Assembly (NCBI GenBank): GCA_965214775.1
Contig: OZ243974.1
Location: 1,216,001-1,280,000 of the forward strand
Direction: 5' to 3'
DNA length: 64,000 bases
Source of the DNA: Nitrosopumilus sp.
GTDB taxonomy: Archaea > Thermoproteota > Nitrososphaeria > Nitrososphaerales > Nitrosopumilaceae
Positions 39,068-59,744 of the stretch are shown in pieces. The notes below the pieces were generated by a model, which was given only the letters and a program-made list of their open reading frames with translations, was not told the DNA's origin and searched no databases. A program made the translations under genes and the position numbers. Each line of letters opens with the position of its first letter. Positions within the stretch are counted from its first letter, which is position 1.

Positions 39068-39107
39068 GAAAAATTTGTTTGGTTTCTAATTTCGGATCAT
39101 CTCTCAG

Positions 39108-39808
39108 GCTGCATGTCACATACAGCGTGGGAAGCATCAGAAGAATCCTGCGCACGATGGGATTCTCGCTAAAGACGTCAACCACCAAGCTGGCAGATGC
39201 TGCCGACGCAAAGTCGGTAAGACAGCGGCAGAGGGATGCAAGAACCGAGATTGCGCTTGCAAAAAGGCGCGGATTCAGGATAACCGTACAGGACGAGTCG
39301 ATATTCGTCAGTACGGGAAGGGACGGCAGAAAGTTCTGGTCGCCAGTGGGGGACAGGATCGAGGTGCAACGATCCGGCAGGAGGGAACGCGTCGTGGTAT
39401 ACGGAACGGTTGCAGACGACGGAACCAGGCTGATGCGCACATACGACAAGTTCAACAGCATAAACTTTGTGCGTTATCTCAAGCAGGCGCACAGAAAGTG
39501 GGGAAGGGTTCTGATTGTGATGGACAACGCATCACAGCACAAGACCGGAAGGGTCCGCAGGTACCTGAGGAAAAATCCCGACGTTGTCCTGCTGTACCTG
39601 CCGGTAGCCAGGCCGGAGCTGAGCGCCATAGAGCCAATCTGGAAGGATGCCAAGTACAGGCTGGTCACATCTGCCTTTTACGATACGGCAGATCACCTCA
39701 AAAGAGCCGTCTCAGAATACTTTAGGACGTGTTCCATCAAGGTTGACATCTACAAATATCTTGAGCGCCGCGTGTAATCAGGCGAAATTTTCAATGATCG
39801 TCAGTATA
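39108..39808 (+). pseudogene. IS630 transposase, 3' part plus right end
   Basis: VQDES, VMDNASQH, PELSAIEPIW; stop at 39777. Confidence 0.88.
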
Positions 39809-49295: not shown

Positions 49296-50643
49296 AGAGG
49301 TGATCCGAAATTAGAAATCGAGCGCCCCGTCCGCAGCCGTCCTGCTGCCGCCACTCATTAGGCCGCAGCAGCGATTCTGGCCGGCACCCTATCGTTGACC
49401 AGTCCGCACACGATACTGTTGGCAAGGTCGTACTTTTTGAGTGGGTTTCGGTACCGGTCGCCCATGATCCTGTATGTTTTGACCCTGCGTATGGTGTTCT
49501 CCACGTACACACGTATCTTTGAGTGCGTGATATTGTACTCTTTTTGCGCATCGGTGAGCTTGCCGCCCGGTTTTTTCTTGATGGAAAGATGATGTCCGTG
49601 CCTGCATCCACTAACTGTGCTCCCTGGTATCCGCGATCCATGTAGTGACGAATCTTGTGCTCTTTTGTTGTTGTTGCGGCGCATCACCATCCCCGCTGCC
49701 GCCGGGACACTTTTTCTCCTTCTCCTTCTCCTTTCTTTGGTCGTACCGGAACGTGGGATGCCTCATCTGGTACATCGTGATGTCGTTTACGCGTCCCGGA
49801 GAGTGGGGTGTCTTGTGCACTATGAGTCCGTGGATGTTGGTGGTGTACTGAACCTTGACTGTGTGCCTGCCTGCCTTGCCTGAATAGTGCGATTTCTCCA
49901 TATCCTTTCTCTTGGGCCTGCATATCTTTTGTTCTGAGGCATCTGTCAGGCAGACAAGTTCTGGCAATACGTCCATTAGTTCCTCTACTGAGGATTATTC
50001 TCTTGGTGCCCGAATAGATCTTTTCGGGGATCGACAGGCACCCCTTGAGAACCGGCGCAATCCTGTCTATCGAGCGCGAGACTGATGCCTGCCCGTACGA
50101 GGTCACCTACCCCCATCAGTCAGGCACAAATTAGCATGAATGATTGTAATCTTCGTGCCTAGCTAGCAAGGGGACGTGACCACATACTGCCTGCCCTATT
50201 CCGAACATGGCAGATGCAACATCCTGTGTGACGTACGTCCTGTAGTAGAACAGGGACAGCAGAAGACTCTCCTTCAGAAAGTAACATTCTACAGATTCCG
50301 CGACCGCCAAACCAAGTAGTAGAACAGGGACAGCAGAAGACTCTCCTTCAGGCTGAGGGCAGTCGGGCGTCCTGCACCGATGATGTCACGCTTGCGGTCT
50401 TTTTTGGCAGAAAGCAGAAAGCCTCTTTCTGTCCATCTTTGGGTGTTTTTTTGCCACCTTTGCATACAACAAATCAAATTCGGGGGCAGTCATGCCGGCA
50501 AACATCTTCTTGAATGTCCCGGGGGTTTTTTGACAATTTATCAAATAACTTCATGAATTATGTACATTTTACTAGCGTTTGGATCGGGTTGGTGTACATT
50601 ATGTGTCTGTTTGATCAAAATTTGCTAATTTCGAATCAACTCT
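49296..50643 (-). mobile_element. IS5-family (ISL2-like, DDE_Tnp_4) element, pseudogenised; likely parent of the most abundant MITE
   Basis: Termini AGAGGTGATCCGAAATTAG / CTAATTTCGAATCAACTCT; fragments DASEQ...YSGK, ADxGYQG-like, RVYVENTIRRVK; frameshifts and insertions. Confidence 0.88.
50242..50351. repeat. Exact 36-bp duplication flanking a 38-bp insert inside the IS5 transposase
   Basis: GTAGTAGAACAGGGACAGCAGAAGACTCTCCTTCAG at 50242-50277 and 50316-50351. Confidence 0.95.
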
Positions 50644-50676
50644 CAGATGACGATGTATGCTCGAATCCATCTACTG

Positions 50677-50837
50677 AGAGACGATTCGAAACTAGAAACC
50701 GTGCAAATGCCCGGATTTTTCTGTATCTTTGTCAAGTAATTTTACAGACAGACAACCTGCCATTTGTGATCATTTCAATCGATTTGATGCAAGTTTGCTT
50801 GTACATGATCTGAATCTGCCAATTTCGAATCAGCCCT
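50677..50837. mobile_element. Diverged IS5-type MITE
   Basis: Degenerate IRs and CTG TSD. Confidence 0.7.
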
Positions 50838-51017
50838 CTGGCAATGCCAGTCATCGCCGGGATGGCTGCAGCGCCGTCCAAGTTCTCTATCACGAGCTTA
50901 TTCGGGTTCTGGCAAATGCCAGTCATCGCCGGGATGGCTGCTTGCAGACGACGGAACCAGGCTGATGCGCACATACGAGTTCTGGCAAATGCCAGTCATC
51001 GCCGGGATGGCTGCAGC
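50838..51017. CRISPR. CRISPR-like mini-array: three ~36-bp repeats and two 36-37-bp spacers; no cas genes or AT-rich leader
   Basis: GTTCTGGCAAATGCCAGTCATCGCCGGGATGGCTGC at 50906-50941 and 50979-51014, variant at 50838-50872; spacer 50942-50978 equals 39410-39446. Confidence 0.6.
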
Positions 51018-52611
51018 ACCCGTATGCAGGCGGGGCGTATGTGTGGTGCGTGGGGACCGGGGCGGTCTGGTTTATCGCGTACACGCGGACGTTGTCATAC
51101 CAGTTGTGGTGATCCCAGTCCGTTCCCCATATGTCGCGCATGTATAAGACGATGGTGATCGCGTCGCGCCCGGAGGCGTGTCCGGTTATGTCCGTCGTGT
51201 ACGTCTGCCATCCGGTGTCTGTCGTGCCACCAAGCACCAGGTATGAACGGTGCAGCCAGTTGCCCGAGTCCGCATCCAGTATCGCCATCCGAGTGTTGGT
51301 CACGGAGCTGTCTGGGGTTGCGCCGATGGCCTTGTAGTCGTAGGACAGCACGAGCCTCTGCCCGGACACGTCTAGGGAGGATACGTCGACGGTCTTCTGC
51401 ATGCCAGCATATACCACGATCTCGTCCTCCGTGTGCACGTGTGCCGCAGTCCGGCCGTCAACGGACTGCCTGCCAATCTCGTACTCTGTCGCGGTGCCCC
51501 AGTACGACCAGCCCTCAAGCGAGGAATCAAAGGTGTCGTTGAGCGGCATCGCGTGCCTTGTCTGGTGGACCGCCTCCGTCGGTAGCATCTCGACGGTGCC
51601 CGAGCCGGCCCCCTGCCGCACCGCGTATCCGTCAAAGATCCATTCGGAGTGGCCCGTGATGTCGACCGAGCGCAGGATCAATGTATGGCCGTGCGGCGGG
51701 CGCGAGGCCTCTATGAAAAGGGTCACCTCGTCCAGCTGCGAGCGCGACCAGTCCGGCGTCAGGACTACCGTCAGATCGGAGGCGTCATGCGGGGCCGCAT
51801 GCAAGTGCGGGCGCTCGTATGATGCCAGGACGCCGCCGCCCTTGGATGCTGGCCAGGATTCCGTAAAGTCGGATCGATGCCCATCTTCTCGATCCAGCAG
51901 TGCAGGGCCGCCCTTGGATGCTGGCCAGGATTCCGTAAAGTCGGACGCGGCGTACCTTGAATACCCCCCGTCGCGGAGGTATGCGCCGACGTATGGATCC
52001 GTCTCCAGCCCCACATCCAGCACGATGTCGCGGCCGCGCAGCTCCGCGGCGGGGAATGACTTGAAGAGGTGCATTGTGCCGTGGCCGGAGGTAGTCGACC
52101 AGAGCGCGATGTCAGATAGCGACTGCGGATTCATGGTCGCTACCACCGCGCCGTCTCCCCCCACCATCTGGTACTGCCAAGCCGTGTCCAGATAGGACGG
52201 ATCCACTGTTACCGTTGAAGTGGCAGTTACCGTGTTGCCCGACGAGTCGGTTGCGATCCACAGCACGGTAGTCGTGCCAAACCCTAGCCTTGCCGTCGTG
52301 CTGTGGCTCCCAGTCACGTTGTTTGTCACGATGACGGCGGGATCGTCCGCGTTGGCCACCGAGGCCGTTCCCAGATCTACCGTGGTGAGGATTCCCTTGG
52401 CGGCCACCTTTGTATCCGGCGGGACGGTAAGGACGGGCAATTCGCCGCCTGCCTCGTCGGCGGCCCTCATGCCAGACCAATCATAGGTTACAAGAAACGA
52501 TACGACTATCGCTGCGGCCAGTACGGCTACCAGCACTGCGGCTGTCCTCTCAGGGCGCAAACGCCACGGCGTGCGGCTCGCATCCGGCGTTACGGAATGG
52601 GATTCCGACAT
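50923..52611 (-). CDS. Membrane-anchored exoprotein with a HYR-like domain and probable carbohydrate-binding beta domains; 3' end runs into the mini-array
   Basis: N-terminal TM; GTTTVLWIATDSSGN; duplicated DFTESWPASKGG. Confidence 0.8.
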   Translation of the reverse strand: MSESHSVTPDASRTPWRLRPERTAAVLVAVLAAAIVVSFLVTYDWSGMRAADEAGGELPVLTVPPDTKVAAKGILTTVDLGTASVANADDPAVIVTNNVTGSHSTTARLGFGTTTVLWIATDSSGNTVTATSTVTVDPSYLDTAWQYQMVGGDGAVVATMNPQSLSDIALWSTTSGHGTMHLFKSFPAAELRGRDIVLDVGLETDPYVGAYLRDGGYSRYAASDFTESWPASKGGPALLDREDGHRSDFTESWPASKGGGVLASYERPHLHAAPHDASDLTVVLTPDWSRSQLDEVTLFIEASRPPHGHTLILRSVDITGHSEWIFDGYAVRQGAGSGTVEMLPTEAVHQTRHAMPLNDTFDSSLEGWSYWGTATEYEIGRQSVDGRTAAHVHTEDEIVVYAGMQKTVDVSSLDVSGQRLVLSYDYKAIGATPDSSVTNTRMAILDADSGNWLHRSYLVLGGTTDTGWQTYTTDITGHASGRDAITIVLYMRDIWGTDWDHHNWYDNVRVYAINQTAPVPTHHTYAPPAYGCCSHPGDDWHLPELVCAHQPGSVVCKQPSRR

Positions 52612-53112
52612 CTTCCCAGCCCCAAACTATGCGCCGCCGTATTGCCTGACTTTGACATATTTTTTAGCAACGGGATCTCGTTTTTATCTTTTTTGCGTAG
52701 GCGCCGTTTATCTATTGTGCCGAAATCATTTCGCACCGGCATAAGGAGGCTGGCAAGGACTGCATTATGCTGTACCGATCAGCAAAACCGATGACAAGGC
52801 TTGGAGAGAGACGTGTCAAATACGTAACGAGTCAGTGCGGCAGGGGAACATGGTAATACGCATTTCCGTAAACAAAAGAAGTGGGGGATGGCTGGGCATG
52901 CGCAGATGGCAGTACAAACTGCAGTGGAGGCGCATGAGACAGTATTCTCAGGTCCGGATACAGCCCAAAGAACTTGTCGACGAGCTCCTCTTGAAAGTTT
53001 GCCTGGCGCATCTCGTCCTCCGCGCTGACTTCGGGACATAACACCTCGAAGAATGCTGTCATATCATGCATTGATTACTCCGGGCTGCTCACTCCGCTCA
53101 GCGGATCCTCAG

Positions 53113-53249
53113 AGAGGTGATCCGAAATTAGAAGCCGTGCGAATTTTTCAAGTAATTTCACAGATAATCTGTATTTTGTTGGTGTTTTGAGCCGTTTTAT
53201 GCAAATTCGTTCACAAATAATCAGAGTCTGCTAATTTCGAATCAACTCT
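53113..53249. mobile_element. IS5-type MITE; further copies at 56918-57193 (with nested GGGGTTGTC MITE 56995-57124, TSD GATGTTTTG) and 62820-62956
   Basis: Terminal IRs and CAG TSD. Confidence 0.9.
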
Positions 53250-53439
53250 CAGGCTGATGTGCAGGCTCAGAAAGACAAACACCCGCAGGAGGTTCGGTCT
53301 GCAAGGCCATAGGATGGAACCTTGAGGTGCTAAACAGGATGGAGTGTGCTGCAAGGATTGGCGTGCCGGTGGAGGCAGCCTGAGGTGAATTAGGCGACAA
53401 CCCCCATTTTATCACCTCCTTTTTGATCAAAGTGTGTGT

Positions 53440-53557
53440 GCCCAACTGAACGGAAAACCCCCATTCGCCTCGATTATGTGGCATTTCGTCGTCCGTCTAC
53501 TCTGAGCCAGTCTCTTACGCGCCCTCATGTGTGGCAAGTTTACTTCGGCTCTTGGGC
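53440..53557 (-). ncRNA. Candidate IS110 bridge RNA, copy B (orphan left end about 53405-53735; ORF lost after the ATG)
   Basis: Homologous to 36183-36381, including TTTGATCAAAAAGGAGGTGATAA.ATG; compensatory stem changes. Confidence 0.6.
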
Positions 53558-53861
53558 CCAACACGGATAATATGGCGTCCGCTACGGATAAGATTTGATG
53601 TATGAGGTTACGTCCCCTTGCCGGCTAGGCACGGAAATCATAATTGTACATGCCAATTCATGCCTGATTGATAGGGGTAGGTGACCACATACGATTTGAT
53701 ATAACGTCTCTTACCATCCACCCGCCATCTTGGGATTCTACTTGGGCACAAAATTCCAACCCAAAGACGATCTGAGTTTCATGTCCCAAAGATTACACAG
53801 AACCTGCAAGGCCAATCTTTATATATTTTATGTAACAATAATTGCCTATAGGTAAATTATC

Positions 53862-54677
53862 GTGACACAGAATACAAACATTGGGCTCCAAAATAGACTC
53901 CTTTTGGAACTAGCAGAAAAGGAGATTAACGTGTTTAATTTTGATGATGCAAAAAAGGTTCTGCAGGCCAATAATTCAGCAACAAGGCATGTTCTTATGA
54001 ACCTGACAAGGAAAAGACGGTTACAGAGAATAGAGCGAGGAAAGTATCTTCTAATTCCAGAAAGGGCAGGAATAGAGGGGCATTGGGCTGAATCTTCCTG
54101 GGTTATAGTTCCACATCTGATTGACACATATTATGTCGGCTTTTGGACTGCAATGAATTTTTGGGACATGACAGAACAGATTCCTTACACTGTATTTGTT
54201 GCAACGACTAAAAGAAAACGAAATCTGGAATATTTGAAACAAAGGTTTGAATTTGTAACACTGTCAAAGAAAAAATTCTTTGGGTTCGTCGAGCAGAAGG
54301 CAGGTAACAGAGAAACTTTCAATATCTCATCAAGGGAAAAAACAATCGTAGACGGTTTAATGCATCCCGAATATTGTGGAGGACTAGCAGAAGTAACCAA
54401 AGCAATGTGGAATGCACGAAAAGAGACTGACTGGAAAACCGTTCTTGAAATGGCAGAAAAAGTAGAAATTAACGCTGTTTTAAAGCGATTGGGATATGTG
54501 CTGTCTGTTCTTGACATCGAAGGAAGAATTTCAGAAAAAATAAGGAAAAAAATAAAAAAAAATCCTTATCACTATCTTGATCCTACTGCAAACAAAGACA
54601 GGATTGAAACTTCAAAGGAACATGGATTGTACATCAACAGATCAAAAGACGAGTTATTGGCGTGGATGGATTACTAG
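53862..54677 (+). CDS. Type IV toxin-antitoxin antitoxin, AbiEi family
   Basis: wHTH RIERGKY, MTEQIP..VFVAT, SSREKTIVD, KRLGY. Confidence 0.9.
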   Translation: MTQNTNIGLQNRLLLELAEKEINVFNFDDAKKVLQANNSATRHVLMNLTRKRRLQRIERGKYLLIPERAGIEGHWAESSWVIVPHLIDTYYVGFWTAMNFWDMTEQIPYTVFVATTKRKRNLEYLKQRFEFVTLSKKKFFGFVEQKAGNRETFNISSREKTIVDGLMHPEYCGGLAEVTKAMWNARKETDWKTVLEMAEKVEINAVLKRLGYVLSVLDIEGRISEKIRKKIKKNPYHYLDPTANKDRIETSKEHGLYINRSKDELLAWMDY

Positions 54678-55441
54678 TGGATGAAAAATTACTTAGAAAA
54701 TTAGCAAGCAAATACAAAATACCGTTAGGAACGTTAGAAAAAGATTACGCATTGACAAACATCCTGTCAGTAATCGCCGGTTTTCCAGAATTAGACAAAA
54801 TGGTTTTCAAAGGTGGCACTGCATTGAAGAAGATGTTTTTTGAAGATTTTCGCTTTTCTGAAGACCTTGATTTTGTTTGTTTTGAAGATGTTTCTGACAA
54901 TTTTATGAATTTTGTGAAAAACAGTATGGGCAATCTTGATGTAGAATTTACAGAGATATCAAACGTAGAAAGAAAGGGCAAGAGTTTCAGGTTCAAAGTA
55001 AAGTATGGTCAATCTACAGGTGCCAGAACAAGCATCAAGGTGGATTTGAGTTTGCGTGGTGATGTGATACTAAAACGCCCTGCTAAGCCGGTTTTACACT
55101 TCTATGAGACCCTTCAAACCCCGTTTTTCGTGCCAGCAATGGCACTTGAGGAGGTTATGGCTGAAAAAATCAGGGCCATAACATACACAAAACATCCCAG
55201 ACATTTGTATGATATCCATTACCTACATCACCAAGGAATTAAGATCAATTCCGACATGGTTAGAACAAAGATAAAGTCTGTTTACAATGAAGATTTTGAT
55301 TTGGACAAGATGAAGGAAAGATTGCCTGAAAAAGCAAGAGATTGGATGACTGATTTAAGACCTCTTCTTCCTGTCCTGCCACCGTCTTTTGACGATGTTT
55401 CAAAAGAGGTACTCAAGGTAATTACCAGTGCAATGAAATAG
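54677..55441 (+). CDS. Type IV toxin-antitoxin toxin, AbiEii nucleotidyltransferase
   Basis: EKDY, FKGGTAL, RFSEDLDF, AEKIRA, RHLYDI; start uncertain (54662-54677). Confidence 0.92.
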   Translation: MDEKLLRKLASKYKIPLGTLEKDYALTNILSVIAGFPELDKMVFKGGTALKKMFFEDFRFSEDLDFVCFEDVSDNFMNFVKNSMGNLDVEFTEISNVERKGKSFRFKVKYGQSTGARTSIKVDLSLRGDVILKRPAKPVLHFYETLQTPFFVPAMALEEVMAEKIRAITYTKHPRHLYDIHYLHHQGIKINSDMVRTKIKSVYNEDFDLDKMKERLPEKARDWMTDLRPLLPVLPPSFDDVSKEVLKVITSAMK

Positions 55442-55493
55442 CGCAATCACACGTAACATCTTGGACTGGAAGTTTAGGCACGAATTTTGCCGC

Positions 55494-55790
55494 TGTGTTA
55501 TATGAAAATTAGGTTCGTTAGTCATTGATGTCCATCTCCACCTATTTTGGGTCTTTTTTTCTGATCGCTTCTGTGGCCTCCCTTGCCAAAAAGGCCTGCA
55601 GTGGCGTCTCACACTTGTCGATATCCAGTGCAAAGTGCAGTGGTGAGGACCCCAAAAAAGAAGGAACGATCTGCAATGCACACTTTTTGAATAAGGAGGT
55701 CGAATCACAAATATGAGTAAGAAAATACGGAGTGTACAGGACAAGATAGGGATAGTCATGGAGCACATCAACACCAATAAGGACGCGCAC
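55494..55790. mobile_element. IS481 3' remnant (minus strand, about 55494-55640) abutting an IS3 5' remnant (plus strand, about 55640-55790)
   Basis: HFALDIDKCETP...ATEAIRKKDPK plus IR; MSKKIRSVQDKIGIVMEH matches the ORF at 60957-61442. Confidence 0.75.
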
Positions 55791-55895
55791 ACGAGTCGCC
55801 TCATGGATCCCGGCGGGGCAGACGGGCAGCAAAAAGCAAGGCCGGCAAGGCGCCTGTCTGGATTCGGGGCAGCTGCCAGGTACTGCGGCTCTAAG

Positions 55896-56888
55896 ATGTC
55901 CAAGTTCGGTGGGGCCCTATACGCATCTTGCACGGCAAAGGACAGGATCAGGGTCGCCTTTATCTACAAGCCGTCTTGGAGATACTATGACCGAAACAAC
56001 TCCATCAACAACAGGTACTATTTCTTTTTTCAGGCGCTACGGAGAAACAGGAACCTCCAGATGGGCTATTTTCCCGCAGAGCATACGTTTGATACGGCAA
56101 AGCTCAGGGGAAAGTACGATGTCATACTGTGTACGAACAGCGAGATCAGCACGCCGCAGCTAAACGGCGCCCGGGATCTGGGCATCCCGGTGATTGCCCA
56201 CACGCACGACCCACACCACATCAAAACGTTTGATCTAGTCGGCTTTCATGAAAAGTACGGGGTGGACTATTACTTTAACTTCATACCTGCCAGTTATTTT
56301 TACAAGTACCTTCCAAGGGACTTTGGGTACAGGATGATAACTTATGGTGTCGAGCCAGATCTGCCACATCTGCCCGCATTCGCAGACCGGATAAGGGATC
56401 GCATTCTGCTTACGGGGACGCTCTGGAAGGGGAACGCAAACGACCCTGTCCAAAACCCCTATACGCTGAGGAGGACGTGCAGGGATCTGCCGTACGTCGA
56501 CTATGCCGGGGTCGTGCCAGGCACCATCCAGTACGTGCACGCAGGACATCCGGACTTTATAACACACCTGTCACGGTACAGGGCAACCATAACCGCAACG
56601 AGGTACTTTCCTACCATCAAGTACTACGAGTCCACGGCTGCCGGATGCCTGACGTTCATGGAGTTCTCAGAGGAAAGCCACGGCGGGTACCTAGGATTCC
56701 GGGACGGGGAGAGCGCAGTGTTTATCGACTCTAAAAACTACAAAAAAAGGTTCGAGGAATACTTGGCCTCTCCAGATGATCCAAAGTGGGCGCAAATAGC
56801 GGCGCGCGGAAAAAGACACACCATGGAGAACCTCACAAACGACAAGGCGGCCGAGTCCCTTGTGGACCTGATGCGGGAGCTGATCTGA
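55896..56888 (+). CDS. GT-B glycosyltransferase (CgeB-like)
   Basis: HDPH, KYYESTAAGCL, GF.DGESAVFID, IAARGK; the longer ORF from 55713 begins in an IS3 remnant. Confidence 0.8.
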   Translation: MSKFGGALYASCTAKDRIRVAFIYKPSWRYYDRNNSINNRYYFFFQALRRNRNLQMGYFPAEHTFDTAKLRGKYDVILCTNSEISTPQLNGARDLGIPVIAHTHDPHHIKTFDLVGFHEKYGVDYYFNFIPASYFYKYLPRDFGYRMITYGVEPDLPHLPAFADRIRDRILLTGTLWKGNANDPVQNPYTLRRTCRDLPYVDYAGVVPGTIQYVHAGHPDFITHLSRYRATITATRYFPTIKYYESTAAGCLTFMEFSEESHGGYLGFRDGESAVFIDSKNYKKRFEEYLASPDDPKWAQIAARGKRHTMENLTNDKAAESLVDLMRELI

Positions 56889-57242
56889 GTCTTTGCATGT
56901 TTTTTGCCTCTTCCCAGAGAAGCGATTCGAAATTAGAGACCGTACGAATTTTTCAAATAATTTCACAGATAATCTGTATTTTGTTGATGTTTTGGGGGTT
57001 GTCGCCTAATTCCACTTGTTTGACTCAATCTGCACGTTTTTCTGAATTTCTGCCCCTTTGCATGCCTGATCCATGTGGCATCTCAGCGGTTCTCAGGAAT
57101 TCTGGCGAATTAGGCGACAACCCCGATGTTTTGAGCTGATTTACGCAAATTCGTCCACAAATAATCAGAATCTGCCAATTTCGAACCAACTCTCAGGGGC
57201 GAGATAAGGATGGCAGAAATGAGCGGCTGGTTGATGTAGATG

Positions 57243-59744
57243 TTACGTATACTTGACGTCCCCGTGTGCCGTACCACCGTTTCCTCCGCCCGAAGAGTCC
57301 GACAGATCGCCCTCGAACTCAAGGTGCATCAGGAGCGCACCATCATAGTCTCCCATACACGCATGATCACCGGTAAGCGCGTCGACGGTGCCGGTGCCTT
57401 TGGTGTCTGACACGGTAGCCATCTCCACATGGCATTTGTGTACGTCCGATATGTAGTCGGCAGGCAACCGTGCCGAGTATATCATGATATCATCCAGCAC
57501 GGTATCCTGTGCAGGATTTCTGCCGATGCTACTAGCACCTATCGCAAGCCGGTGATCATTTGCAACGGATCCTGCCAGCGACGTGTTGTACCAGCGCAGA
57601 TTGTCGATCTGTCCGTCCACGTACACGTCGAGTCCGCCCCTGTCTCCTGAGCCATCATAGGTAAACACGATGTGGTGCCAGCGGCCGTCGGTCATGCCGG
57701 AGAACGTGCCGACGGTGATCTGGCTTTGCGCATCGTCTGCCATCCGGAATGAAATCCCGCCATATGGGTTGCCCCATACGGTGATGCCCTGCTGCCTGGC
57801 CGCGTCAGCCTTTGAGATGATCAACGAGTCAGGGTTGCCGGGTTCGAGCATCTTGATCCAGAAGGCTATGCTGAACGGATCGGCCCCACCGAGATCGAGT
57901 CCGGGTGCGGCGGCAAGCGTGACGTATGCAGTGCCGTCAAGGTGGAGGGCCCGGCCGGCGGGGCCGTATGCAGGCAGGGACGTCCACCCGGGCGGGTTCC
58001 ACACCGTCACCTCCATACTGCTACTGAAATGTCGGTGGAACTTGGATGGTATCGGCGTGTCTGGTTTTGAGGGACCCTGAAACTCGATTACCCTATCACT
58101 GCCATCGTATATGTCAACATACCGCTGTGACCAGTCCGTTTCCGGAGACGCCGTCGCATTGCCCCCATCACCACCGCCGGTCTCCAGCACGTTCCTATGA
58201 AACTTGACCCTGTCGACAGAGTCGATCATTACGATCTTGTTGGTTTTGTGCGGACGCGTGTCGTACAGGTCATATCTGTCCAAGCTTGAATGGGTAATAT
58301 TGTAGCCGTGCAGCCGCCATGATTCGTTAATCAGCCACATGATTATTTCCGCGTCGGAGCCGGCATAGTTTTGCAGCGCAAAGAACAGTGCGCTAGGATA
58401 GGCAGACATCGTGTCCCAATGCACAAACACTCCCGACGTGGACAGGCCGAGCGCCGCGACGGCAAGCAAGGCAGCCAGCAACAGCGTGCGCTGCCTCCCC
58501 GGATCCTGTATTCTGGCTGATGCCCTTTCAATCCCTGCGCCGATCAGTGCGGCGGCGGCAATGCACATCACAGTCCACAACATCCCCAGATGGTAGAGGT
58601 ACGTCACGAACCCGATTGATCCAAAGAACAGCAGGACGGGTGCGGCCCACAGCAGCAGAAACCTGTTGCGTGAGGCCACCGCAAAGGCCAGTCCTGCTGT
58701 GCCCAGCGATACCATGACCGGATCCATCTCGAACAGCAGTATCGTGGCCACCAGCATGATCGCAGGACGGGTCAGTATGTCAGGATCCTGGTCATATACG
58801 AGGGCGATCGACGTGTATTGCTGCAGCAGATCCAGCTTGGACTGACTGCCCCTGTCTGTGTGCCACAGGACGCCGTCCACCCACCCGTCAAAATCACCTG
58901 CCAGTGCCGCAGAGGCGGGCCAGGCTGCCGCAATCAGGATTGCGGGCACAAGCCACAGCAGTACGCGCCCCGGCCTCCTGCCGGCCGACCAGACCAGAGC
59001 GAGGACAAGCGGGATCATGACAAGCGAGGGAACCTTGACAAGCATGGCGCATCCCATGCAGACACCAGACAGGATGATCAGCAGTCGAACCCTGCCCGGA
59101 GCCGGCGGCAACAGCGGCTCCCCATCCCCACTTCCTTGGAATGGGCCGCGTGCGTACATGGCAAGCAGAACGGAGGACAGGACGAACGGGAGGAGGATCG
59201 AGTCCAGTACAACCAGTCTGAGCGTCAGCGATACGGGCATTACCGCAAACAGGACGGCTGCAATCGGCGCTGCCCTGCGCCCGAAGCCCCTCTCGGCTAT
59301 CTTGTATATCAAAAAGGTGTCCAAGACGGCAAGCAGGCCCATGAGGATGCGCGGTGCCCCGTAAAGCATCCCAAGCGAGGATGCGCCCTCCGGTGTTACA
59401 AAGGAGTCGGGATATCCGGTGGCATGCAGGAATCCGGCCAGCATGGTGATAGAAGAGATGTCATGATATTCGTATGGGTAGGCAGATCCGGTGGCATGCA
59501 GGAATCCGGCCAGCATCGTCCAGCCAAGGAACGGGTGGTCGTGCCTGTCTGACAGTATCTTGTGGTTCAGGACGTCTAGAGCCTGGCCTATGTAGGTTGA
59601 CTCGTCTGGGTGCCACGACGGAAACCCTGCCGTGTTCCACATGTGCGTGTATGCAGAAAGCACCAGTATTGCTACAAGCAGGAGGAGTGGCCCGTGCCCC
59701 GACAGGCGCCCCGTGCGAATGGTGGTACGTCCGAGGCCAAGCAT
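57243..59744 (-). CDS. GT-C-LamG fusion, paralogue of 17637-20033
   Basis: Colinear similarity along the full length; extra in-frame TMLAGFLHATG duplication. Confidence 0.88.
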   Translation of the reverse strand: MLGLGRTTIRTGRLSGHGPLLLLVAILVLSAYTHMWNTAGFPSWHPDESTYIGQALDVLNHKILSDRHDHPFLGWTMLAGFLHATGSAYPYEYHDISSITMLAGFLHATGYPDSFVTPEGASSLGMLYGAPRILMGLLAVLDTFLIYKIAERGFGRRAAPIAAVLFAVMPVSLTLRLVVLDSILLPFVLSSVLLAMYARGPFQGSGDGEPLLPPAPGRVRLLIILSGVCMGCAMLVKVPSLVMIPLVLALVWSAGRRPGRVLLWLVPAILIAAAWPASAALAGDFDGWVDGVLWHTDRGSQSKLDLLQQYTSIALVYDQDPDILTRPAIMLVATILLFEMDPVMVSLGTAGLAFAVASRNRFLLLWAAPVLLFFGSIGFVTYLYHLGMLWTVMCIAAAALIGAGIERASARIQDPGRQRTLLLAALLAVAALGLSTSGVFVHWDTMSAYPSALFFALQNYAGSDAEIIMWLINESWRLHGYNITHSSLDRYDLYDTRPHKTNKIVMIDSVDRVKFHRNVLETGGGDGGNATASPETDWSQRYVDIYDGSDRVIEFQGPSKPDTPIPSKFHRHFSSSMEVTVWNPPGWTSLPAYGPAGRALHLDGTAYVTLAAAPGLDLGGADPFSIAFWIKMLEPGNPDSLIISKADAARQQGITVWGNPYGGISFRMADDAQSQITVGTFSGMTDGRWHHIVFTYDGSGDRGGLDVYVDGQIDNLRWYNTSLAGSVANDHRLAIGASSIGRNPAQDTVLDDIMIYSARLPADYISDVHKCHVEMATVSDTKGTGTVDALTGDHACMGDYDGALLMHLEFEGDLSDSSGGGNGGTAHGDVKYT

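Follow-up and report, generated by a model that had tools for sequence, protein, structure and literature searches.

Nivala, Shipman and Church (2018, Nat Microbiol) are said to have described 'neo-CRISPR' loci that arise when Cas1-Cas2 integrates spacers off target. Off-target integration was shown in E. coli with a type I-E system and overproduced Cas1-Cas2 (PMC7054753, PMC6698737, PMC9456107, 10.1101/148544), and the bioRxiv preprint among these sources (10.1101/148544) speaks of only 'circumstantial evidence' for natural off-target integration in two other species. As outlined in these sources, a neo-CRISPR locus of E. coli is a spacer-sized insert flanked by a repeat-length duplication, at a site that resembles a leader-repeat junction, and repeated strikes could seed a new array. 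According to PMC6698737, Cas1-Cas2 of P. furiosus used non-CRISPR sites in vitro with G/C one repeat length apart, and the attacked position was preferably G, then C, with G1, T2 and A6 enriched. In the type I-B system of Haloarcula hispanica, as summarized in PMC4872114, integration always starts at the leader-repeat junction, from which a ruler measures out the second cut, and altered motifs lead to aberrant duplication sizes; that work used engineered repeats inside the array, and its abstract does not describe off-target sites. Mini-arrays borne by viruses and plasmids, solitary repeat units, and CreA-type ectopic repeats are also known, as described in PMC9458426.

Here we describe a CRISPR-like block of three repeats and two inserts, referred to as the mini-array, in a Nitrosopumilus sp. 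It lies at 50838-51017 of the window, that is, the whole stretch of 64,000 nucleotides that was analysed. As in the E. coli loci, spacer-sized inserts are flanked by repeat-length duplications at a site resembling a leader-repeat junction. Unlike the E. coli case, a native type I-B system in an archaeon appears to have acted, a single chromosome carries ~44 fixed events, many of the inserts are self-derived, and one site was struck twice with a 3-nt shift in register. Similar to the enrichment reported for P. furiosus, the sites here favor G at +1, C or T at +2, and A at positions +6 to +8, and paired sites are one repeat length apart; the P. furiosus reactions, however, took place in vitro on plasmid substrates with a 30-bp spacing, whereas the products here arose in vivo, are inherited, and are ~36 bp apart. 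The ruler described for H. hispanica offers a rationale for duplications of 35-38 bp and for a shifted register at sites without proper internal motifs. Viral and plasmid mini-arrays resemble the present block in being very short arrays or lone repeats outside the main CRISPR locus (PMC9458426). Their repeats, as described there, match the canonical repeat of the host for Cas binding, whereas the repeat here is an unrelated host coding sequence. The literature searched (articles without their supplementary files) yielded no account of dozens of natural off-target integration events in one genome. The mechanism is already known; noteworthy here are the scale of ~44 events, inserts that derive from the chromosome itself, insertions that extend proteins in frame, and the one site struck twice in shifted registers. 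Taken together, the mini-array is very probably a by-product of the host type I-B Cas1-Cas2 (with Cas4), which integrated spacers outside the CRISPR array and struck this site twice.

The mini-array, its host gene, and the order of insertion

A direct-repeat search detected a 33-nt core, CTGGCA(A)ATGCCAGTCATCGCCGGGATGGCTGC, in three copies within 50838-51017, with start-to-start spacings of 72 and 73 nt. An exact search with the core gave two matches in the window, with none expected from 100 shuffles. The copy R1 was missed in this search because of a 1-nt deletion: one A of an AAA run is missing compared with R2 and R3, a detail absent from an earlier sequence-only reading of the locus. The parts of the block and of the gene in which it lies are as follows (a slash marks a junction here and below).

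50838-50872, minus strand: R1, CTGGCA-ATGCCAGTCATCGCCGGGATGGCTGC plus AGC, 35 nt; the oldest, leader-distal copy
50873-50908, minus strand: insert 1, 36 nt; its final three plus-strand bases are GTT
50906-50941, minus strand: R2, GTT plus core, 36 nt, in the register of event 2
50942-50978, minus strand: insert 2, 37 nt; identical at 37/37 positions to part of an IS630-family transposase gene
50979-51017, minus strand: R3, GTT plus core plus AGC; the copy adjoining the gene body, with the minus-strand junction ggtgct/GCAGCCAT
50923-52611, minus strand: host gene for a 562-aa protein; the ORF runs through R3 and insert 2 and stops in R2
50831-50833, minus strand: TGA, the inferred original stop, obtained by removing both insertions

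Formally, the block is shaped like a CRISPR array, with direct repeats inside the 23-47 nt range, unique inserts of 36 and 37 nt, and a period of 72/73 nt. Its repeat is not of a family served by the Cas6 and effector of this genome and was not found to recur in arrays elsewhere; it is unlike the repeats of the two canonical arrays of the genome and occurs at only these three places in the whole 2.83-Mb single-contig genome. Also, without a leader or adjacent cas genes, the block lies at the 3' end of a protein gene, and the only cas operon is ~1.16 Mb away. No exact match to the 26-nt repeat core was found in the collections genome_contigs, viral_contigs, and metagenome_contigs. The CTGGCA/TGCCAG palindrome noted in the sequence-only reading is present in the repeat, whose minus-strand RNA is predicted to fold at -11.8 kcal/mol (z = -2.2).

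We compared the block with assembled contigs from independent sequencing runs. Contigs of runs X1 and X5, from two studies, covered 50620-50935 and 50985-51864 without a difference, and a contig of a third run (X7) covered 50626-50911. The contigs broke at the repeated 36-mers, which is expected of real duplications. No RNA run was found among those that contain this stretch. In the contigs of run X6, 50810-50931 and 50993-51053 were uncovered, without a bridging contig. The best-matching read set may be the source sample itself. The sequence-only reading had named two outcomes that would speak against it, namely a repeat that is a dispersed IS end or part of a larger array, and a chimeric join. 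The former was absent from the genome and the three contig collections, and the same joins were present in contigs from two studies. A 33-nt piece directly abutting R1 (50806-50838) is also dispersed in the genome.

The order of the two insertions can be read from the ends of the copies. R1 and R3 share a 3' AGC, and R2 and R3 share a 5' GTT, in agreement with the sequence-only reading. The IS630 source of insert 2 reads ...ATACGA/CAAG and thus lacks the GTT found before R2 and R3. Since the GTT before R3 is not derived from the IS, it can only have been copied from the end of insert 1, and insert 1 must have come first. Event 1 duplicated the core plus AGC (36 nt) around a 36-nt insert. Event 2 duplicated GTT plus the core (36 nt) of the gene-proximal copy around the IS fragment, and the terminal GTT of insert 1 was thereby copied. 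Insert 1 followed by the IS630 fragment is the only order that fits the sequence. These results bear out the earlier proposal of two sequential insertions, each with a 36-nt duplication and offset from one another by 3 nt, in which insert 1 preceded the IS630 insert. The two-event, array-like structure thus stands; the idea of a singular nascent array does not, and the locus is instead one double-hit site among ~44 off-target insertions.

The 562-aa host protein has an N-terminal hydrophobic stretch and a weak, sub-threshold HYR-like match, and no family scored above the Pfam threshold. The last 17 codons of the gene come from R3, insert 2, and R2. Before both insertions, the protein would have ended in ...DDWHLPEG, followed by the stop. 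Its closest homologue, P0002 (51% BLASTP identity, 57% in the alignment), ends about at the inferred old stop. A DNA search of 30 relatives for the pre-integration allele gave no matches outside the genome itself; searches with the host protein gave domain-level matches only (at most 41% identity) in 100 genus genomes and three matches among 5.8 billion proteins, the best foreign one being at 51% BLASTP identity. An empty site for the mini-array locus was found neither in the relatives nor in the contig or protein collections searched.

These data bear on whether the block could instead stem from a foreign CRISPR system that a mobile element carried in, as a leftover or a small array with a repeat family of its own. 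The formal array shape and the dispersed repeat element that adjoins the block would be compatible with such an import. The repeat is host coding sequence, however, the ORF of the gene continues through R3, and the homologue ends at about the same place. Furthermore, the core had no match in the three contig collections and no other copy in the genome, and neither the 3-nt register shift nor the 43 analogous insertions with different 'repeats' described below fit an import. We regard a foreign origin as extremely unlikely compared with off-target integration by the host machinery.

Canonical CRISPR-Cas loci and insertions of the same size in the genome

The genome carries one cas operon, which is of type I-B, complete, and adjoins array 1, with all of its genes as open frames. 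The order is putative cas8 (no family match), cas7 (Csh2), cas5b, cas3, cas6b, cas1, cas2, and cas4; a predicted adaptation module, cas1 (219 bits), cas2, and cas4, is present by array 1. Only one Cas1-family gene was found in the genome, and a casposase-like second copy was not found. Array 1 consists of ~69 repeats of 37 nt (RNA-sense repeat GTCGTAATGACTAATCCATCATAACAAGGATTGAAAC) with spacers of 33-39 nt (mode 35) and a period mode of 72. Array 2 (C1:1977219-1978062) comprises 12 repeats, each 36 nt long, separated by spacers of 36-39 nt; its repeat forms an 8-bp hairpin and has a ATTGAAGC 3' end. No cas genes were detected near array 2 with NCBIfam in ~17 kb upstream and ~1.5 kb downstream. 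Upstream of array 2 are an IS66 transposase and a VirD4/TraD-like ATPase. The geometry of the mini-array, 36+36 and 36+37, is that of arrays 1 and 2; its 36-nt duplications and its inserts of 36 and 37 nt are within the lengths of the canonical repeats (36 and 37 nt) and spacers.

[quoted passage not shown] These aberrant units may likewise reflect recent, imprecise integration. Neither array has a spacer that matched the genome (for array 1, nothing beyond 17 nt), and array-1 spacers gave no match in phages. Among 150 genus genomes, array-1 spacers matched other arrays or solitary repeats, plus two poor partials with 6 and 8 mismatches. These searches yielded no PAM for the canonical system. 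Several relatives in the genus contain solitary sequences outside arrays that end like the array-1 repeat (...ATCCATCATAACAAGGATTGAAAC).

The genome was scanned for non-tandem direct-repeat pairs at each spacing, a minimum of 30 matches being required in a window of 34 nt. Spacings of 70, 71, 72, 73, 74, 75, and 76 nt gave 4, 4, 13, 16, 12, 6, and 2 loci, respectively (n = 57), and all other spacings from 40 to 130 nt gave 0-2 loci each, except 63 (four loci) and 82 (five loci). Likewise, exact repeats of at least 28 nt gave 39 pairs in the 72-77 bin vs 0-12 in the neighboring bins (30-35 to 150-155). A second peak of exact direct repeats was observed at spacings of 156-161 nt (69 pairs). Fourteen of the 57 loci were dropped: six copies of one repeated element at spacing 75, one collagen-like coding repeat, three loci in multi-copy MITE-like or dispersed elements, two with duplications shorter than 30 nt, one 44-nt duplication with a 26-nt insert, and one with four mismatches. 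The event counts depend on the filters applied. The 43 events kept had periods of 71 (3 events), 72 (12), 73 (15), 74 (12), and 76 nt (1), a duplication mode of 36 nt, and an insert mode of 36-38 nt, with identical duplicate copies in 36 of 43. The older event of the mini-array, which contains the indel, was uncounted by the scan; adding it gives a total of ~44 events at 43 loci, and the mini-array is the only locus struck twice.

Each of the 43 insertions has a different 'repeat', and the inserts are mutually unrelated, which indicates that they are not a transposon. When the insert and one duplicate copy were removed and the remainder was aligned to paralogous sites in the genome, uninterrupted 'empty' sites were found for 14 of the 43 events, with up to 99% identity over 197 nt and no gap.

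Next to the sizes of the insertions, we analysed their sites, pooling 66 ends of 33 events with duplications of 35-38 nt. Outside the duplication, G was favored at -3, G/C at -2, and C/T at -1; inside, G was found at +1 in 27/66 ends, a pyrimidine at +2 in 51/66, and G at +4 in 28/66, with +6 to +8 being A-rich. This pooled motif is that of the array-1 leader-repeat junction, GCT/GTCGTAAT. The match of the best end to the array-1 junction 11-mer averaged 4.77 for the 43 events vs 3.56 for 200000 random sites (Mann-Whitney p = 3.7e-7), and the corresponding values for the array-2 junction were 3.88 and 3.57 (p = 0.07). The top-scoring sites read ggcc/GTCATAATGCCC and cccc/GTCGTATTGCAG. At the mini-array, the event 2 junction on the minus strand matched the canonical leader-repeat junction at 7/11 positions, and the event 1 junction, 3 nt upstream, at 5/11 (counted manually from the sequence). 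An array polarity with the gene side as 'leader' would fit these matches. No clear motif was observed at the far (repeat-spacer) end of the duplications. The duplication mode was 36 nt, although the junction motif fits array 1, whose repeat is 37 nt, and not array 2.

Sources of the inserts and the question of a functional array

The match of insert 2 to an IS630-family transposase gene reported in the sequence-only reading proved exact: 50942-50978 is identical to 39410-39446 (37/37, with 0 expected by chance). The features at the source are as follows.

39410-39446, plus strand: protospacer, one of two perfect source copies of insert 2
39079-39777, plus strand: IS630-family transposase ORF (DDE_3, PF13358, 80 bits)

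The source is flanked by ACGG and CAAG, and the CAA at 39447-39449 corresponds to a 5'-TTG on the minus strand. Genome-wide, insert 2 matched 12 IS copies, two perfectly, nine with one mismatch, and one at 32/34. Insert 1 gave no match in the window, the genome, viral contigs, phages, plasmids, or metagenome contigs. On the minus strand it reads NPNKLVIENLDG, as the sequence-only reading had it, and the likeness to a TnpB RuvC motif suggested there found no support, the reading being 12 residues only, with no source found.

Among the 43 inserts of the genome-wide set, 14 had a source elsewhere in the chromosome. Besides the 37/37 of the mini-array, five were perfect over the maximal-run insert (36/36, 37/37, 38/38, 38/38, and 28/28), and one further insert, at an unrelated site, came from the same IS630 family as insert 2. 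Four of 11 single-copy sources were less than 100 kb away from the CRISPR-cas locus (binomial 0.0055 in a post hoc comparison). As a candidate PAM, a 5'-TTN was found beside 5 of 12 traced sources, TTT in three cases, TTC in one (after a 1-nt boundary correction), and TTG for insert 2, which is a weak signal; nothing consistent was found in the flanks of the remaining seven. Where the junction score orients the event, at the mini-array, 106658, and 2776475, the orientation agrees with TTN.

These features can be weighed against an origin in a process unrelated to CRISPR, such as filler DNA at staggered breaks, template switching during replication, or an unknown integrase. A TT-type flank at only 5 of 12 traced sources and a duplication mode 1 nt short of the array-1 repeat would be in line with such a process. 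It would not account for duplication and insert sizes that lie tightly at the CRISPR unit size with essentially none at other spacings, nor for sites that resemble the leader-repeat junction. The single Cas1-family gene, without a casposase-like second copy found, and the post hoc proximity of 4 of 11 single-copy sources to the CRISPR-cas locus also argue against it. We consider a non-CRISPR process very unlikely.

A further possibility is that the mini-array functions now, as a read-through antisense RNA or a processed guide RNA that restrains the IS630-family element. The antisense geometry proposed earlier is correct; with the transposase ORF on the plus strand, read-through along the minus strand would yield RNA antisense to that ORF. 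The protospacer has a 5'-TTG in the matching orientation, the site was struck twice with both new copies identical, and the repeat RNA is predicted to make a stable hairpin. However, the repeat resembles both canonical repeats only in its ...GAAC end (canonical ...GAAAC), which makes processing by Cas6b unlikely, and its RNA folds differently from either canonical repeat. A working type I guide perfectly matching two IS copies, and matching nine with one mismatch, should kill the cell or should have purged these copies. It is also not improbable that one of ~44 inserts derives by chance from an IS with 12 copies, and another insert from the same IS lies at an unrelated site. Given how its repeat differs from the canonical ones, the block is unlikely to work as an array, and a role of the mini-array in restraining the element at present appears quite unlikely overall. 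We read the block as a non-functional by-product.

Neighboring insertions and proposed origin

Three further insertions are located in the window near the mini-array.

50242-50351, no strand assigned: single insertion of 38 nt between the two copies of a 36-nt duplication (50242-50277 and 50316-50351), ~600 nt from the mini-array
51835-51945, no strand assigned: single in-frame insertion (72 nt) within the 562-aa host gene
59414-59516, no strand assigned: in-frame insertion (72 nt) inside the gene for an 833-aa PMT/Laminin_G_3 protein

The event at 51835-51945 adds 24 residues, SDFTESWPASKGGPALLDREDGHR, and both retrievable homologues are without exactly these. For the event at 59414-59516, two paralogous sites (84% identity) lack the insertion. 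The event at 50242-50351 interrupts a dispersed ~385-nt element, whose paralogous sites have, in 15 cases, one 36-nt copy without the 38-nt insert. A joint that skips 74 nt (50241/50316) was seen in contigs of runs X5-X7; considered as an allele of the 50242-50351 site, it most likely reflects paralogous copies of the dispersed element instead. This element occupies 50188-50650 of the window, directly beside the mini-array, and has ~15 copies in the genome. A separate 88-nt element at 50100-50187 has >40 genome copies. AbiEi antitoxin domains (PF09407, 33.8 bits) were found in a plus-strand ORF at 53862-54677.

Five insertion loci were found in ~16 kb (50242-59516 of the window and C1:1281865 of the genome), three of them within ~1.6 kb. 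Three loci including the mini-array within 2 kb were reached in 356 of 20000 simulations, and five loci within 20 kb in 196 of 20000. The insertions around the mini-array form a modest local hot spot. As to the reading frame, pre-insertion ORFs of at least 300 aa carry nine events in their middle, and the in-frame period of 72 nt was found in 5/9 of these vs 12/43 overall. Frameshifting events were mostly located in short ORFs, gene ends, or repeated elements. The in-frame excess within long ORFs is read as a selection filter.

The following course of events would account for the mini-array. In a first step, the integrase would have attacked the 3' end of the protein gene at a weak mimic of the leader-repeat junction, making two cuts staggered by 36 bp, and gap repair would have duplicated 36 bp around a 36-nt prespacer. 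In a second step, another integration would have taken place 3 nt further into the gene-proximal copy, at a better junction mimic (gct/G), and 36 bp would have been duplicated again, around a 37-nt fragment of a transposase gene (IS630 family) in this chromosome. The same process would have left the single insertions elsewhere, some of them as in-frame additions of 24 codons in genes. The neo-repeat being unrelated to the canonical ones, its transcript is most likely neither processed by Cas6b nor loaded into Cascade, which would account for the tolerance of a perfectly matching, self-targeting spacer directed against 12 IS copies. A more far-reaching version, in which the integrase acts as a genome-wide mutagen, supplying 24-codon cassettes and seeding arrays, and the mini-array is a selected, transcribed proto-array whose antisense or guide-like RNA dampens the 12-copy IS, is in our judgment quite unlikely.

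If the mini-array and the single insertions are by-products of the host integrase, this chromosome would supply a natural data set for the site choice and ruler length of that enzyme. The insertions would be direct examples of CRISPR adaptation causing gene disruption and in-frame protein insertions. Furthermore, the second strike with a shifted register would show how a new array could begin from non-CRISPR DNA, and the locus suggests that self-derived spacers survive where the landing site makes them unusable.
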